The notes beneath the pieces were generated by a model. The model was not told the DNA's origin. It saw nothing but the letters and a program-made list of their open reading frames with translations, and did not search any database. DNA of 64,000 nt from a virus (lineage: Duplodnaviria > Caudoviricetes): the IMG/VR virus record IMGVR_UViG_3300025913_000019, one strand, 5' to 3'. The position numbers and the translations under genes are program-made. Numbering within the stretch: the first letter of the stretch is position 1; each line of letters opens with the position of its first letter. Below are positions 44,890 to 51,501 of the stretch, piece after piece.

Positions 44890-47082
44890 ATGAACACACG
44901 CACGTTCCACTACATCGATGCGATGCCGGGAGCCGGGAAGACGGAGTACTTCGTGAACAAGGCTGCGAAGCTCTTGCGCGACGGAGGTGACTACATCCTG
45001 GTCTATGTGGCTCCGACCGCACGACTGTTGCACGAGACATACCGACGACTGCAGAGCAAGGTCGGCTACGAACTCATGCTGGCAAAGGTGCAGGTGGTGG
45101 CCGAACCTCATCGCGTGTCGGAGGCATTTCATTCCACACCGTACAAGGTGATCGGTGACCAACCGACGGTGGCACTGAACTACATGTTCGACCTCATCAC
45201 TCGACAGCAGTATGTGGACACGAAGTACCGCGTGGGCTTCAGCCACAGCTTGCAGGCAAACGCGCAGCTCGGTCACGTGGTGATGACGACACATGAGTCG
45301 TTCGTGCGGATCAACCGTCAGGATCAGACGGGTCATGGCTTCGCACTGCTTGGCAAGATGATCGTCGTCTTCGACGAGGCGCGCAAGTGCGTGATGCAGC
45401 CGAGCGACTTCAAGATCCCGAAGGATCAGTGGTCGATGCTTTGGAAGTCGCTGACGGTCGACACGGTCGACTCTGAGACACCTGCCTTCCGCAAGAAGCG
45501 TGAGCTGCCTCCGATCCAACTCGCAGCCGGTGTCGTTCCTCACACGCTCTACCGCATCAAGCAGGTCGAGCCGCTCAAGCGCATCCTCGAAATCTTCGGA
45601 GTCAAGCTCAAGTCGCTGCTACCGCCCGAGGTCAAGGCCATGCTCGCCATGTACCGTGAGTACGCAGAGACAGGTCGAGGTTCCATCTACATCCTGTCGA
45701 CCGTCAACCTCGACGAGATGTACGAGCCGCTGGCGAGCAAGGAGAAGATCAGCGTTCAGATCGTCATGCGGCCGACAGCGTTGTTCGACAACTACCAGCA
45801 CGTGATCTTGACCTCGGCCTTCTTCACCGACAGCCAGATGTACCACTTCTTGAAGAAGGACGGTCACAAGCTCGTGCCGATGCTGAAGCCGAAGAAGCTC
45901 GGACCCGCACTCGCTGCCATCAAGGAACGCTCTGAACGCTTGCGTAAGTCTGCGGCAGAGCGTCTTCACGTGGCAACGCTCCTGAACTCGGACATGCCAT
46001 CGCGGCCTGGCCCCAAAGCCTACAAAGAGAACCTGACCTCGACGTTGCTGACGACCGGCATGGTCTTGCCACGTGCACTTGAGGTCCAGGCACGTGGCGC
46101 ACTTGACCGAAGCCTGAGTCACAGAGAGATCGTCTACAACCTGGCACAGGTCAATGGCCCGTCCGTGTCAGAAGATCCCGACATCGACGCACGACTACGC
46201 GACTGGGCAGTGCCGCCGCTGTGGGTCTTGCTCTTCTACGCAGCCGTGATCGTGCGGCGCTGGATGAACAAGTATGGCAAGCCCGGACAGCGGTCGCTGT
46301 TGACCCTCAACGTCAACGACAAGAAGGTGTGGCTGCCGAACGGCACGCGTTACCTGCGCACCGTCAAGTTCACGCTTGCGCACGGGACGCTTGATCGCAA
46401 GGCTGGCCACTCGAACTCCGATGTCTACGACGACAAGCACCTGCGTGATTCAGCATTGATCCCCGACCTGTGGAGGACGCGTCTGAAGGAGAGCTTGTAC
46501 GATCGGCTCAAGACTTCGACCTTCACGGTACCGCAGTCGCCTGCACTGCACGGCATCAACCGCTACTCGAAGATGTGCGCCTTCACGCACATGGCTGCAC
46601 TGAACCCGAGTCCTACTCAGACACGCTTCTACCGCATGCTCATCCCCGACTACGACGTTGACCAAGATCACAGCATCGAGAATCTGGTGCAGACCTTGTA
46701 CCGGACATCCTTGCGTGATCCAGACGCTGCTGATCCTGTGCTCATGGTCATCCCATACGAGTCGAGCGCACGTCTGCTGGCGACCAAGATCGGTATCCGG
46801 TCTTTCAAGAAGGAGGTGAACAAGCCACCGCTGACGACACTCAGCCACGTGAAGCTCATGGGTGAGGAAGCGCGCGAGCATCAACGCCAGCGGACGCAGG
46901 AAGTGAACCGCAAGTATGACAAGGATCTCAGCAGCGAAGTCGACAAGGCTCGTGCTCGTGTCATCGCCGCGCGCGCGAACTTGAAGAAGGCGCCCGACTC
47001 CAAGGCTCGGCAGGCAACTTTGGCACGCCATGAAACCGCGTTCGAGGCTCTGAAGGCCAAGGCGACGCTGAAAGGAAAGTGA
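44890..47082 (+). CDS. SF2 helicase-like protein, possibly origin-binding
   Basis: Walker A DAMPGAGKT, MTTHES, Walker B VVFDEA, motif VI-like QTLYRTSLR; basic C-terminus. Confidence 0.7.
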   Translation: MNTRTFHYIDAMPGAGKTEYFVNKAAKLLRDGGDYILVYVAPTARLLHETYRRLQSKVGYELMLAKVQVVAEPHRVSEAFHSTPYKVIGDQPTVALNYMFDLITRQQYVDTKYRVGFSHSLQANAQLGHVVMTTHESFVRINRQDQTGHGFALLGKMIVVFDEARKCVMQPSDFKIPKDQWSMLWKSLTVDTVDSETPAFRKKRELPPIQLAAGVVPHTLYRIKQVEPLKRILEIFGVKLKSLLPPEVKAMLAMYREYAETGRGSIYILSTVNLDEMYEPLASKEKISVQIVMRPTALFDNYQHVILTSAFFTDSQMYHFLKKDGHKLVPMLKPKKLGPALAAIKERSERLRKSAAERLHVATLLNSDMPSRPGPKAYKENLTSTLLTTGMVLPRALEVQARGALDRSLSHREIVYNLAQVNGPSVSEDPDIDARLRDWAVPPLWVLLFYAAVIVRRWMNKYGKPGQRSLLTLNVNDKKVWLPNGTRYLRTVKFTLAHGTLDRKAGHSNSDVYDDKHLRDSALIPDLWRTRLKESLYDRLKTSTFTVPQSPALHGINRYSKMCAFTHMAALNPSPTQTRFYRMLIPDYDVDQDHSIENLVQTLYRTSLRDPDAADPVLMVIPYESSARLLATKIGIRSFKKEVNKPPLTTLSHVKLMGEEAREHQRQRTQEVNRKYDKDLSSEVDKARARVIAARANLKKAPDSKARQATLARHETAFEALKAKATLKGK

Positions 47083-47675
47083 TGAACGCCGAAGAGAAGA
47101 TTGTAAAGAAGGGGATGCAAGTCAAATGCGATCGCCACTTCTTGCGCTACGCAGTACCGTCACCTGTGTGGCGCCAGTCCGAGTTCCGTTGGTACCCGAC
47201 CGAGATCGATGGACTCACCCTCGAGTCGCAGATCCACTCGGTCGGGCTCTGGAACCTGAACCCGATCAACGCGCAGACCTTCGTCGTCACCGCGTCCGAC
47301 ATCCTGCGGGCCGAGTACTTCGCAGCCATGCTGGTCGAGGCCCACGTGCGACAGAACCGACATGCCAACGTCCAGTGGCTGCCGATCTACCACGACGAAC
47401 TCGATCGGTCGACAGGGGAGTTCCGACACGCTGTGCCGTTGAGGAAGCAACAGGAGCTCGACCCGACGCTGCTGGTGCTGTCCAACCTGGGCCTCGAGTC
47501 CAGCGACGTGCAGGTCGAGAAGGCGCGCGATGTCATGGCACGCTGGCCTTCGTGTCCGGTCATCCTCATCGGCGCCGGAAAGCACATCGGGCCCAAGGCC
47601 TTCGCCAAATACATGCTGGTCGCGATGCACCGCGCGGTCCACGTCAACTACAAGAGAGGGCAGATCGATGTCTGA
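47079..47675 (+). CDS. hypothetical protein, possibly a degenerate DnaC/IstB-like loader
   Basis: LLVLSNLGLE...PVILIG resembles the Walker B/sensor region; no Walker A. Confidence 0.45.
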   Translation: MMNAEEKIVKKGMQVKCDRHFLRYAVPSPVWRQSEFRWYPTEIDGLTLESQIHSVGLWNLNPINAQTFVVTASDILRAEYFAAMLVEAHVRQNRHANVQWLPIYHDELDRSTGEFRHAVPLRKQQELDPTLLVLSNLGLESSDVQVEKARDVMARWPSCPVILIGAGKHIGPKAFAKYMLVAMHRAVHVNYKRGQIDV

Positions 47676-49197
47676 CCTGAGAGATCCGAAAGCGCTGCTC
47701 GGGCTGCTGCTCGACCACTGGCGCTTGAAGGACGAAGCTACCGTCCACATGACGCTCGACACCCTGGTCTACGAGCAGGATCGAAGGCAGGGCTTCAAGC
47801 CTGCGCCACCGAACACGATGACGCGCCTGCTGGACACGCAGATGGCGGCCAGGACTCCGGTCACTGCGTCGCCTATTGCCATTCCTGGACGACAGGACCC
47901 GGCCTTCATCCCGCCGAAGGACAAGAAGCTGGACGACAACAAGGCCGGCGAGTTCGAGATGACCGCGGGTCAAGCCGAAGCCTGGGCCAAGATCACGGCG
48001 TGGCTCAAGACTGAAGAACCGTTCTTCGTCCTCGAAGGCTTCGCCGGCACCGGCAAGTCATTCCTCCAGCAGAAGCTCGCCAAGTATCCGGGCCACTCGT
48101 TCTACTTCAGCGCTCCGACCAACAAGGCGACGAAGGTGCTGGCCGACTTCATCGGCGAGATGTGCAAGACCACGTACTCGCTGCTGGGTCTGAGGATGGT
48201 GAACGAGGGCGACAAGAAGGTGCTCTCGAACTCGGGCCGATTGCCCGACCTCGGCCACGCACCCATCCTCGTCATTGACGAGGCCGGCATGGTGCCGAAG
48301 ATGCTCGCTGACATGCTGAAGGAACTTTCCGAGTCGCATGGCTGGCGTGTCATCTTCGTCGGCGACCCCGCACAGCTCAACCCGGTCGGCGAGAGCCAGT
48401 CGCGCGTCTGGAAGATGGCGCCGAAGCAATGGAAGTCGCGGCTCACCGAGGTCAAGCGCTTCGACAATCAGCTGCTGCACCTGTCGGTCAAGGTCCGCGA
48501 CTGCCTGCGCAACAAGGACTACTCGCAGTCTCCCATTGCGAACGACAACGATGGGCGCGAAGGCGTGTTCGTCATCGACCGCAAGGCCATGTTCGACGAG
48601 ATCAAGAAGTTGCAGCTGCAAGACTGGCGCACGACCAAGGTCGCTGCCTGGCGCAACAAGACGGTCGTCGCCTACAACAAGATGATCCGCAAGAGTCTCG
48701 GCTTCCTCAACGAGTACGATACCGACGACCTCATCATGCTGGCCGAGCCCATTGTCGACTCGAACGGTCAAGTCATCGCCTACACAGACGAGGAGTACAA
48801 CATCAAGGCCATCGGTAGTCGCGTCTTCGACTTCCCCGAAGGCAAGATCGAGGCCAGAGCCATCACGTTGCAGGACTCGCCACTCGTGCTGTACGTGCCG
48901 GATGACGACGGCTCTTCTGTGCTCTCCATGTTCCTGTCGGAGCGTGCATCGAAGGCCGGTCGCGCCACCAAGGCACACGAGCGCAAGATGCTGTGGGATC
49001 GCTTCTGGCAGATGAAGAACCAGTTCCACGCGATCCGGTATGGCTACGCGCTGACGGTGCACCGGCTGCAGGGATCAACGCTCGACCACATCTACGTCGA
49101 CCAGGCTGACATCCTTTGCAACCAGAACGAGCGCGAAGCCTACCGCTGTCTCTACGTGGCGGCCACAAGGCCTCGGTTCAGCCTCACCACTTACTAG
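47668..49197 (+). CDS. Dda/RecD-like SF1B helicase
   Basis: EGFAGTGKS, SAPTNKA, VIDEAGMV, FVGDPAQLNPV, LTEVKR, YALTVHRLQGST, LYVAATRP. Confidence 0.92.
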   Translation: MSDLRDPKALLGLLLDHWRLKDEATVHMTLDTLVYEQDRRQGFKPAPPNTMTRLLDTQMAARTPVTASPIAIPGRQDPAFIPPKDKKLDDNKAGEFEMTAGQAEAWAKITAWLKTEEPFFVLEGFAGTGKSFLQQKLAKYPGHSFYFSAPTNKATKVLADFIGEMCKTTYSLLGLRMVNEGDKKVLSNSGRLPDLGHAPILVIDEAGMVPKMLADMLKELSESHGWRVIFVGDPAQLNPVGESQSRVWKMAPKQWKSRLTEVKRFDNQLLHLSVKVRDCLRNKDYSQSPIANDNDGREGVFVIDRKAMFDEIKKLQLQDWRTTKVAAWRNKTVVAYNKMIRKSLGFLNEYDTDDLIMLAEPIVDSNGQVIAYTDEEYNIKAIGSRVFDFPEGKIEARAITLQDSPLVLYVPDDDGSSVLSMFLSERASKAGRATKAHERKMLWDRFWQMKNQFHAIRYGYALTVHRLQGSTLDHIYVDQADILCNQNEREAYRCLYVAATRPRFSLTTY

Positions 49198-49205
49198 GAG
49201 TCACT

Positions 49206-49653
49206 ATGAGTGTCCAAGTCATCGACAGCTTCCGTGGCGAGTACATGTTCCTGTCGAACTTCGACACGGAGTACTCAACGCTGTACCGCTCGATCTTCTT
49301 CAAGTCGAGCGAGCACGCCTACCAGTGGGCGAAGTGCGCGAACGATGCTGGCCGCCGTCGGATCAGGGACGCGAAGACACCCGCTGACGCGAAACGCATT
49401 GGTCACCACGTGCTCATGAGGGCCAACTGGGACACCGAGCGCGTCAAGTACATGCGCAATATCATCCACGCGAAGTTCTCGCATGGCTCTGACTACGCGC
49501 GCATGGTTACTCGACACCGGTGACGCATTGCTGATCGAGGGCAACAAGCACGGCGACACCTTTTGGGGTCAGTGCAACGGCGTCGGAGAGAACTGGCTGG
49601 GCATCCTGTTGATGGAACGCAGGGCCGAACTTCGTGCCCTGGAGAAACTGTAA
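49206..49653 (+). pseudogene. NADAR-family protein interrupted by a +1 frameshift near 49505
   Basis: Frame 1 gives FLSNF..SSEHAYQWAK..AKRIG..NWD..MRNIIHAKF and stops at 49523; the +1 frame continues LLDTGDALLIEGN..DTFWG..GENWLGILLMERR to TAA 49653. Confidence 0.8.
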
Positions 49654-49681: not shown

Positions 49682-50287
49682 ATGAGCACGAACGAGCAAC
49701 AAAGTCAGCCGGCGGAACAGCAGCCGCAGACCATCGACCTGTCGAAGCCGAACGTCGAGCACGGCATTCCCGCGCTGCAGCTCGCCGGCTACTACGACAA
49801 GAGCCGCGGCGTCGTCCTCGGCTTCATCCCTCGCGGCCAGAACGAAGTGAGCCCCGACGACTTCGTGTCGAAGATCACGTACCCGAACCTCACGGCCGCG
49901 ATCAAGGACATGCAGGCGTGCCTGGACATGGCGTTCCAGGCGACGGCGACGCTGGCGACCGACATCGGCTACGCCCGCGGCTACAAGGCGGCCATGAACG
50001 ACGTGGCGGCCAACATCAAGACCGCGACCCGCGTGCCCAACTCCGAGTCGAAGGCGAGTTCGCCGACGCTCGACGCCGAGGACGCGGCAGTCATGGACTC
50101 CGTGGCCGAGCCGGATCGCGTGCAACCTGATCCCGCCGTGGAGAAGGTGGTCGGGCAGAAGGAAGACCCGGAGGACGACCCGCTGAACTTCAGCCTCGAC
50201 CTCAGCATGAGCGGTGCCGACTCCAAGCCGACGAAGCGCAAGGCGCCGACGGGCACGATCAACCTCAACGCCGACGCGGAGGAATGA
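49682..50287 (+). CDS. acidic hypothetical protein
   Basis: 201 aa; AAGGAG RBS. Confidence 0.7.
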   Translation: MSTNEQQSQPAEQQPQTIDLSKPNVEHGIPALQLAGYYDKSRGVVLGFIPRGQNEVSPDDFVSKITYPNLTAAIKDMQACLDMAFQATATLATDIGYARGYKAAMNDVAANIKTATRVPNSESKASSPTLDAEDAAVMDSVAEPDRVQPDPAVEKVVGQKEDPEDDPLNFSLDLSMSGADSKPTKRKAPTGTINLNADAEE

Positions 50288-50655
50288 TGGCCGACCCGTT
50301 CTACACCGACCACCTCGGCTGCAAGGTCACGGCCGACGACGAAGGCGGCTTCGTCTACTACGTGGACCCACCGACGACCCCGGTCATGCCCGAAGGAGTC
50401 GACTGCGATCGCGATGGTCTCGCTGTCGCACGGCTGCAGTTCCAGAACGGCAACCCGCACACGCTGGGCATCAACGGCCTGACCAACGAACACCTGCTGG
50501 CGATCCTGTACCACCGCATCGGCGTCCTCGACGCGAAGATGCCCGACCAGGAGAACAAGATCGCCAAGCACTACGTGAAGAGCGCGCTGACGGCGCTCGA
50601 GCGCAGGACCAAGGCGCGACAAGCGCGCAACGTCGAGGGAACGGACGCGCCCTAG
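50284..50655 (+). CDS. Tad1-like anti-defence nucleotide sponge candidate
   Basis: LQFQNG...G.TNEHLLAILYHRI...ENKIAKHYVKSALTALERRTKARQARNVEGT follows the Tad1 pattern FQxG..LL.I..DRL..EN..A..HV..AL...RR...R..RNV.GT as I recall it. Confidence 0.7.
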   Translation: MMADPFYTDHLGCKVTADDEGGFVYYVDPPTTPVMPEGVDCDRDGLAVARLQFQNGNPHTLGINGLTNEHLLAILYHRIGVLDAKMPDQENKIAKHYVKSALTALERRTKARQARNVEGTDAP

Positions 50656-50756
50656 CCGCGTTCCGAATCGGCGACAAAAGTAGAGCGTAGACACGCCTTC
50701 CAACAGCACCACACGGCAACTGCTTCATCAACTTCTCGCGCATAGCGCACACCATC

Positions 50757-51416
50757 ATGTCCTTCATTCCTTCCCTCGACGACGAAATCACCATTGCCTC
50801 TCTCGAAGAAGGCGACCACACCAAGGCCATCTGGGCACTGAACGGCAGCGCCAACAGCGCGGCCCGCCAGGCCGGCGAGGTCCACATCGGCATCCCGAAG
50901 CGCAACGGCACGAAGGTCGACGACCTGTTCCTGCCGATGACGTGGCTGCCGATCCGCATCACGGACCAGATCCCGCGCGCCCAGCTGCTGGAGAGCTCCG
51001 AGTTCCGCAACGCCGTGAACAACGGCCTGCTGACGCTCATCAGCGAAGAGAAGGCCCGCGCCATCATGAGCGAAGACGGCGCCGCCGACGAGCGCGAGCG
51101 CCTGTCCGAGCGCGCGAAGCAGATTCGTGACGCCACGGCCGCTCGCACGATCAAGGACTCCGGCGCCGAGGTCGTATCCGTGCAGGAGCTGGCCGACGCC
51201 AGCCGCAACCAGGACCAGGCCGAAGAGCGCGACCCGAATGCCCTGGACGCCGGCTTCGTCATGTTCGTCAACGCGGTCAAGGACCTGCCGGACGTCGACG
51301 CCCTCAACCGCATCCGCGGCCGCCAGAACTTCACCCGCCCCGAGATCCAGCACATGGTCAAGGAGCTCAAGGGCAAGGAGAAGGTCGTCGCCTTCCTCAA
51401 GAAGGCGCTCGGCTGA
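50757..51416 (+). CDS. hypothetical protein
   Basis: 219 aa with very strong GC3 bias, followed by a terminator. Confidence 0.75.
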   Translation: MSFIPSLDDEITIASLEEGDHTKAIWALNGSANSAARQAGEVHIGIPKRNGTKVDDLFLPMTWLPIRITDQIPRAQLLESSEFRNAVNNGLLTLISEEKARAIMSEDGAADERERLSERAKQIRDATAARTIKDSGAEVVSVQELADASRNQDQAEERDPNALDAGFVMFVNAVKDLPDVDALNRIRGRQNFTRPEIQHMVKELKGKEKVVAFLKKALG

Positions 51417-51466: not shown

Positions 51467-51501
51467 CCCCGTCACTGGGCCCCTGGTGACGGGGATTTTT
51501 T
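51467..51501 (+). terminator. intrinsic terminator
   Basis: CCCCGTCAC/GTGACGGGG stem followed by ATTTTTT. Confidence 0.75.

Follow-up and report, generated by a model that had tools for sequence, protein, structure and literature searches.

Does a short gene in the genome of an uncultured phage encode a genuine Tad1 protein, and which immune signal would such a protein capture? The gene in question occupies positions 50284-50655 of a 64,000-nucleotide stretch (the window), which is part of the 139,364-bp IMG/VR virus record IMGVR_UViG_3300025913_000019 (CheckV completeness 59%). An earlier reading of the letters alone, referred to here as the original prediction, had described its product as a divergent Tad1-like sponge with altered ligand specificity. 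Tad1 is a well-described family of phage sponge proteins that take up bacterial alarm nucleotides, and one further member is no discovery in itself. We find that the protein belongs to this family as a genuine but divergent member, an assignment based on sequence profile, predicted fold and predicted dimer. What is new is that it occurs as two alleles, differing only in an N-terminal cassette, in phage genomes that are 98-99% identical. We favor the view that the protein is a sponge working as a dimer, which captures an adenine-nucleotide immune signal but leaves cyclic trinucleotides (CTNs) unbound, a reading that we consider probable, with room for the alternatives weighed below.

A divergent member of the Tad1 family

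The open reading frame (ORF) is real, as originally claimed: its GC content at the three codon positions (GC1 0.67, GC2 0.40, GC3 0.89) is the pattern of true genes in this 62% GC genome, and it is intact in at least nine contigs from several metagenomes. It opens with a tandem ATG pair, the second of which (50287) is chosen by gene callers on identical contigs, yielding a protein of 122 instead of 123 amino acids. The upstream gene's TGA shares bases with the first ATG (ATGA/ATGATG), so that translation of the two genes is probably coupled. The motifs quoted in support of a Tad1-like identity are all found in place, namely F53-Q-N-G56 and G65-L-T-N-E-H-L-L-A-I-L-Y-H77-R78 in the first half, and E90-N91, A94, Y97-V98, A101-L102, L105, R107-R108, R112 and R115-N-V-E-G-T120 in the second.

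A Protein Data Bank (PDB) sequence search with the single protein identified Tad1 of Clostridioides mangenotii (CmTad1, 8KBB) at E 3e-5, followed by gp184 of phage phiKZ (8Y6V chain I, E 5e-3) and Tad1 of a Clostridium botulinum prophage (CbTad1, 7UAV, E 0.1). With a profile built from 118 relatives (alignment A2), these matches reach E 2.5e-23 for CmTad1, 2.4e-17 for gp184 and 2.7e-19 for CbTad1 and cover profile positions 5-114 of 115, a resemblance well above what chance would give. Annotated Tad1 genes of Bacillus phages are likewise matched by tblastn: SBSphiJ7 Tad1 and its homologues (e.g., Atlee) belong to the same family, with 40% identity over residues 42-120 at E about 2e-6, but display an F/Y-C motif type in place of L..M.D and come from Bacillus rather than from a probable betaproteobacterium host. 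Among the PHROGs hidden Markov models, phrog_2428 (listed as “unknown function”) matches residues 48-121 at E 1.6e-19. Searched exhaustively with phmmer, a set of 1.84 billion representatives returned 1244 clusters at E <= 0.001, just one of them exceeding 50% identity; precomputed annotation assigns PF24729 (Acb2_Tad1_hairpin) to the majority of near relatives and gives one of them the name “Acb2/Tad1 domain-containing protein”. Searches of the protein against Pfam, NCBIfam and PADLOC gave no match, nor did megablast of the 6-kb neighborhood against phage records; a search for related loci in viral contigs yielded no relative of the gene, and a corresponding metagenome scan yielded one further contig with the second allele described below, one distant relative and nothing else.

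CmTad1 (PDB 8KBB, 8KBC, 8KBD) is the best match in both sequence and fold, at about 23% identity. In both proteins, two long helices come after an antiparallel sheet at the N-terminus, the loop is of the FQ.G ... GINGxxNE type, the pocket residues N, R and R are present, and the C-terminus carries an (I/V)EGT lid. Relative to CmTad1, one residue is deleted in the turn between helices alpha1 and alpha2, and the Phe of the F.DSPY turn is replaced by Leu. CbTad1 (PDB 7UAV, 7UAW, 8SMD, 8KBE-8KBH) is matched over its full length in fold, with the lid RNV.GT. kept, but shows weak similarity at the level of the single sequence.

The match to gp184 raises the question whether the protein is a virion component with a Tad1 fold and no sponge activity. 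Protein gp184 is a minor capsid protein (PMC11297242) located at the vertices of the inner capsid surface; its C-terminal domain is Tad1-like, the family profile matches it with the E value given above, and both it and the protein analyzed here derive from jumbo phages. However, gp184 comprises 230 amino acids and is proteolytically processed, and its N-terminal part of roughly 110 residues has no counterpart in our 123-residue protein, whose N-terminus also lacks the shared peptide proposed as this phage's head-loading tag. Moreover, the gene resides in a unit with helicase and NADAR genes instead of among head genes, and R78, invariant among the relatives surveyed below, is kept here and lost in gp184. 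We therefore regard a role in the virion as very improbable.

Predicted fold and dimer

AlphaFold2 modeling on alignment A2 (mean predicted local distance difference test (pLDDT) 89.9, predicted template modeling (TM) score 0.78) yielded three or four strands at the N-terminus, a loop of low confidence at residues 30-47 and long helices at 68-85 and 89-114. In a Foldseek search of the PDB with this model, the best 20 matches are all Tad1 chains (TM 0.64-0.77, probability 1.00), and the next match lies at E about 1. Structural alignment with VIA-align gave Z 11.4 and a root-mean-square deviation of 2.5 Å over 114 residues for apo-CmTad1, and Z 10.9 over 115 residues for CbTad1 bound to 1''-2' glycocyclic ADP-ribose (gcADPR), whereas in all non-Tad1 chains the helical hairpin alone was matched (Z <= 7.4). 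Hence, full-length similarity of the model is confined to Tad1 structures.

A two-copy complex was modeled with an interaction prediction score from aligned errors (ipSAE) of 0.85, compared with 0.02 for the best control, with 187 confident contacts, partner pLDDT of at least 84 and 100% contact agreement among three runs. This mark was reached by 20 out of 30 proteins solved as pairs and by one out of 23 solved as single chains. The modeled interface consists of strand beta4 (48-53) and both helices, the same elements that build the CbTad1 dimer, in which a beta4-beta4 seam is combined with a four-helix bundle (Leavitt et al., 10.1101/2022.05.03.490397). As Tad1 dimers are already present in the PDB, the score may reflect likeness to them and is not proof of assembly.

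The predicted gcADPR contacts are conserved in part

Eleven residues of CbTad1 contact 1''-2' gcADPR: H29, G55, R57, R78, F82, F87, N92, R109, R113, G120 and N122. The adenine is stacked by F82 and R109 while its Hoogsteen edge is read by N92; the diphosphate is held by R57, R109 and R113 and by the backbones of R57 and G120; F87 supports the ribose of the adenosine; and the hydroxyls of the ribose-ribose linkage are held by H29, the G55 amide, R78 and N122 (all 10.1101/2022.05.03.490397). We mapped these contacts via HMMER alignments, using native CbTad1 numbering, i.e., the 7UAV chain number minus 1, as checked on R57, F82, R90, N92, T97, R109 and R113.

Six of the 11 contacts are identical in the protein (G55, R78, N92, R109, R113 and G120 correspond to G56, R78, N91, R108, R112 and G119), two are conservative replacements (F82 to L82, F87 to M86) and three are changed or lost, with F23 in place of H29, D121 in place of N122 and no aligned counterpart for R57, for which H59 is the nearest candidate. 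The C-terminal lid is kept: R115-N-V-E-G-T-D121 aligns to RNVLGTN at CbTad1 positions 116-122, and the protein extends two residues further. By residue identity, the part of the pocket predicted to read adenine and diphosphate (N91, R78, R108, R112) is thus intact, and the part predicted to read the ribose linkage is altered. The protein differs from characterized Tad1 proteins at ligand-contact positions, in line with the original prediction. The differences identified here are H29 to F23, loss of R57 and N122 to D121, along with R90 to Q89 and T97 to H96 at the second site described below; these changes may entail an altered ligand specificity.

Two of the differences named at the outset turned out to be the norm in this branch of the family. 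Residues were tallied in 266 relatives, a sample biased towards query-like sequences. The replacement of DR by HR is no peculiarity, since His is the majority state at position 77 (186 H versus 68 D), and the same applies to Leu82, likewise flagged as unusual, at the F82 position (193 L versus 49 F). R78 is invariant in this sample, and N91, R108 and R112 are near-invariant. Rare states specific to the protein are F23, K95 and D88, taken up below, as well as M86 and, judged in a smaller sample of 152 sequences, Y76.

Beside the survey itself, a domain fusion was observed in Burkholderia phage FLC9, where gp131 (LC667451.1; L011:1742-2755; 338 amino acids) combines an N-terminal cyclophilin-type peptidyl-prolyl isomerase (PF00160, E 2.5e-44) with a C-terminal Tad1-like domain.

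The cyclic-trinucleotide site and hexamer contacts are replaced

The characterized Tad1 proteins also possess a CTN pocket, formed by R90 and T97 in CbTad1 and by R88 and T95 in CmTad1, where C87, A91 and M92 face the CTN bases and M102, W103 and K106 make inter-dimer contacts (Li et al., 10.1101/2023.11.15.567273). Single R90A or T97A substitutions in CbTad1 markedly reduce binding of cyclic triadenylate (cA3), and interface mutants dissociate to dimers devoid of CTN binding (10.1101/2023.11.15.567273). At the equivalent positions, the protein carries Q89 and H96 (pocket), D88, K92 and I93 (base-facing) and T103, A104 and R107 (inter-dimer). Consequently, the R90/T97/W105 signature of CbTad1 reads Q89/H96/A104, and with respect to CmTad1, Q89 and H96 replace the cA3/cAAG contacts R88 and T95, D88 and K92 the hydrophobic base contacts C87 and A91, and T103, A104 and R107 the hexamer contacts M102, W103 and K106. 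At the position of D88, 255 of the 266 relatives have Cys or Ser.

Since most of these relatives lack the Arg (present in 17%) or the Thr (present in 20%), Q89 and H96 at the Arg and Thr positions say little about family membership, and the CTN pocket is not family-defining. Arg, Thr and Trp at positions 89, 96 and 104 are each present in 17-20% of the relatives, and they occur together. Most of the protein's branch is, as far as residue states reveal, without the CTN/hexamer signature. This large and mostly metagenomic branch without the triad stands against published surveys in which the triad is kept by most orthologs: Li et al. report that most Tad1 orthologs keep both sites, with CTN-site substitutions in 6% of their PSI-BLAST set.

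Because the Arg/Thr pair of the CTN pocket and the Trp of the trimer-of-dimers interface are missing, the protein is probably a dimer of the single-site type that would not bind cA3 or cAAG. The opposite reading, a canonical two-site Tad1 whose hexamer binds gcADPR or cyclic dinucleotides as well as CTNs, with Q89 and H96 taking over from Arg and Thr, draws on the retention of both sites in most orthologs and on the ability of Gln and His to hydrogen-bond phosphates. Yet R90A or T97A alone suffices to cut cA3 binding, and here both positions are changed, as are W105 (to A), C87 (to D) and M102 (to T); furthermore, the R/T/W triad moves as a unit among relatives, and all three of its members are missing. 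We consider such a two-site protein very unlikely.

A candidate sponge and its ligand

In the single-site dimer that we favor, two copies would interlock via a beta4-beta4 seam at the front and a four-helix bundle at the back, creating two positively charged pockets at the dimer interface that are closed by the C-terminal tail RNVEGTD. Each pocket would trap one immune second messenger that contains adenine and that the infected host produces, so that the defense effector would not be switched on. The most probable ligand would be a cyclic ADP-ribose (cADPR) isomer made by a TIR (Toll/interleukin-1 receptor) domain protein, i.e., 3'cADPR or 2'cADPR, and alternatively a cyclic dinucleotide of CBASS (cyclic oligonucleotide-based antiphage signaling system).

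Several observations weigh against this proposal. Conservation fails at five of the 11 gcADPR contacts (F23, D121, the lost R57, L82 and M86), and F23 stands where 204 of 266 relatives possess His and essentially none Phe. At the position of K95, 251 of 266 have Ile or Leu. The protein's branch is long, with 0.93 substitutions per site separating it from the nearest neighbor. A specificity for 3'cADPR or 2'cADPR in particular appears doubtful, as H29 and N122 read the ribose-ribose linkage and both are replaced. Loss of the hexamer is read from residue identity, the model having been made for the dimer. Finally, PF24729 (27-bit gathering threshold) does not match the protein at E <= 10 by hmmscan, nor does it match in a six-frame search of the genome. 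The same model also fails on the protein of Bacillus phage Atlee annotated as “anti-thoeris viral protein” and on the homolog in Acinetobacter phage ABMM1; given that Atlee Tad1 is missed too, its failure here points to limited model sensitivity and is not evidence against membership.

Separately from the protein at hand, Tad1 counts based on Pfam will underestimate the family, as PF24729 misses all three of these sequences.

The altered contacts are also compatible with a retargeted sponge of the same fold and dimer, whose pocket would hold canonical cADPR, N7-cADPR, the histidine conjugate His-ADPR or only CBASS dinucleotides, and whose N-terminal cassette would be the specificity module. 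The pattern of change fits this idea: linkage-reading contacts differ (F23, D121, loss of R57) while adenine and diphosphate contacts are kept, and the position equivalent to H29, which lies within the exchanged cassette, is occupied by Phe in one allele but by Asn in the second. Specificity shifts are known in sponge families (PMC12393519), and neither SBS Tad1 nor MoTad2 inhibits the proteobacterial Thoeris types VII and VIII, which use canonical cADPR (10.64898/2025.12.03.692087). On the other hand, type I Thoeris was inhibited by all 10 of the diverse Tad1 homologs in the tests of Leavitt et al., and among the 20 Tad1 proteins that Hadary et al. tested from a set of 1,587 homologs, CBASS and type I Thoeris were the only systems seen to be inhibited. 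Retargeting therefore appears rather unlikely to us, although it ranks first among the alternatives to a sponge for the known signals. With its predicted adenine/diphosphate core intact and its predicted linkage contacts altered, the protein is a sensible candidate for screens aimed at sponges of new ADP-ribose-derived signals.

Two alleles differ in an N-terminal cassette

Seven contigs carry exactly this protein, and two contigs of a sister lineage (L007 and L008), whose flanking regions are 98.1-98.9% identical, carry a second, intact allele. The difference is confined to a hypervariable cassette of about residues 5-50, in which a stretch of 118 nt (50298-50415) is replaced by 138 nt in the sister lineage and cannot be aligned by blastn. 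Identity between the alleles within the cassette amounts to 17 out of 55 aligned amino acid columns (31%) and 82 out of 151 nucleotide columns. From 50433 onwards, 521 nt (50433-50953) are without a single difference between the lineages, compared with about one difference per 58 nt elsewhere; this tract on the 3' side of the cassette looks like a recent recombination footprint. The model of the second allele displays the same architecture as the first, and both are confident (pLDDT 90.1 for the second).

A diversity-generating retroelement was considered as the cause of the cassette and rejected, because indels of 18 and 3 nt separate the alleles and because a template-like copy is absent from the 139-kb record, where the best second match is 30 nt long at 87%.

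The cassette might instead constitute a natural specificity module that is exchanged by recombination to retune the Tad1 scaffold, with possible targets among TIR signals that no known Tad1 sponge captures, e.g., the canonical cADPR of type VII/VIII Thoeris, or that permits escape from a host factor detecting the sponge; we put this forward as a speculative and quite unlikely explanation. Irrespective of the cause, alleles with identical C-terminal and very different N-terminal halves provide a matched pair for locating ligand specificity in Tad1.

Genomic neighborhood and source phage

The source is an uncultured soil jumbo phage from rhizosphere samples, which is found in several metagenome assemblies (JGI, ENA, Logan). 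Its head-tail connector protein shares 45-47% identity with the counterparts from Ralstonia phage phiRSL1, Burkholderia phages BcepSauron and BcepSaruman and Achromobacter phage Motura, and the window also encodes a ribonucleotide reductase, a thymidylate synthase and a DNA polymerase. These features point to a jumbo phage whose host is probably one of the Burkholderiales. No homolog of the Tad1-like gene was found by tblastn (E <= 1e-3) in the cultured relatives phiRSL1, BcepSauron and Motura, and it is hence classified as an accessory gene.

The Tad1-like gene lies within a rightward unit that begins after a strand switch (Table 1).

Table 1 Features of the rightward unit and of the Tad1-like gene, in positions of the window
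Feature	Coordinates	Strand	Remarks
SF2 (superfamily 2) ATPase	44890-47082	+	
198-aa protein	47079-47675	+	
Dda-like SF1 (superfamily 1) helicase	47668-49197	+	509 aa as called on identical contigs; phrog_325, E 3e-81
NADAR	49206-49653	+	Two frames (105 aa and 56 aa) owing to one inserted G at 49505/49506
Acidic protein	49682-50287	+	201 aa, no detectable family; stop overlaps Tad1-like start (ATGA); probably translationally coupled
Tad1-like gene	50284-50655	+	123 aa; 122 aa from second ATG, 50287
Hypervariable N-terminal cassette	50295-50432	+	About residues 5-50: beta1-beta3, beta2-beta3 pocket loop with F23, long low-confidence loop
Conserved part	50433-50652	+	beta4 (FQNG), GINGLTNE loop, alpha1 and alpha2 (R78, N91, R108, R112), lid RNVEGTD; 100% identical in both alleles
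219-aa protein	50757-51416	+	No recognizable function; phrog_17686; last gene of unit
Terminator-like hairpin	51467-51494	+	12-bp stem, 8 G-C pairs, then T run

The gene order underlying the proposed anti-defense spot, i.e., Dda-like helicase, NADAR, the 201-aa gene and the Tad1-like gene, is as claimed. The spot itself is thin, given that NADAR is frameshifted and both genes flanking the Tad1-like gene lack a recognizable function. The NADAR split recurs in contigs of two independent assemblies (ENA ERZ27252312 and Logan SRR6056503), whereas the gene is intact (148 amino acids) in four JGI/ENA contigs (L003, L004, L007, L008), which identifies the extra G as a population polymorphism rather than a single assembly's error. 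In either lineage, every contig has the 201-aa acidic gene together with the Tad1-like gene; neither this acidic gene's product nor the 219-aa neighbor has a PDB sequence match or a usable Atlas match. A wider anti-defense island was considered and is unsupported. A search for Tad2 (PF11195) found none across the 139-kb record, which is about 59% complete. Acb1 (PF23474) likewise had no match in the record, a result that is uninformative, as the model matched no control genome either.

The frameshifted NADAR gene next door and the absence of homologs from phiRSL1, BcepSauron and Motura would be expected of a decaying or neutral accessory gene without current function. Against this, the ORF is intact and identical in seven contigs with the second allele intact in two more, its codon composition matches that of coding frames, both alleles fold confidently and the near-invariant family residues are kept. 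We thus judge decay highly unlikely and retain a functional, dimeric sponge as the preferred interpretation.

There is no indication of a terminator directly behind the Tad1-like gene, as RNA spanning 50640-50760 folds no better than shuffled sequences (z 0.40). The rightward transcription unit starting at 44890 likely ends at the hairpin that follows the 219-aa gene.

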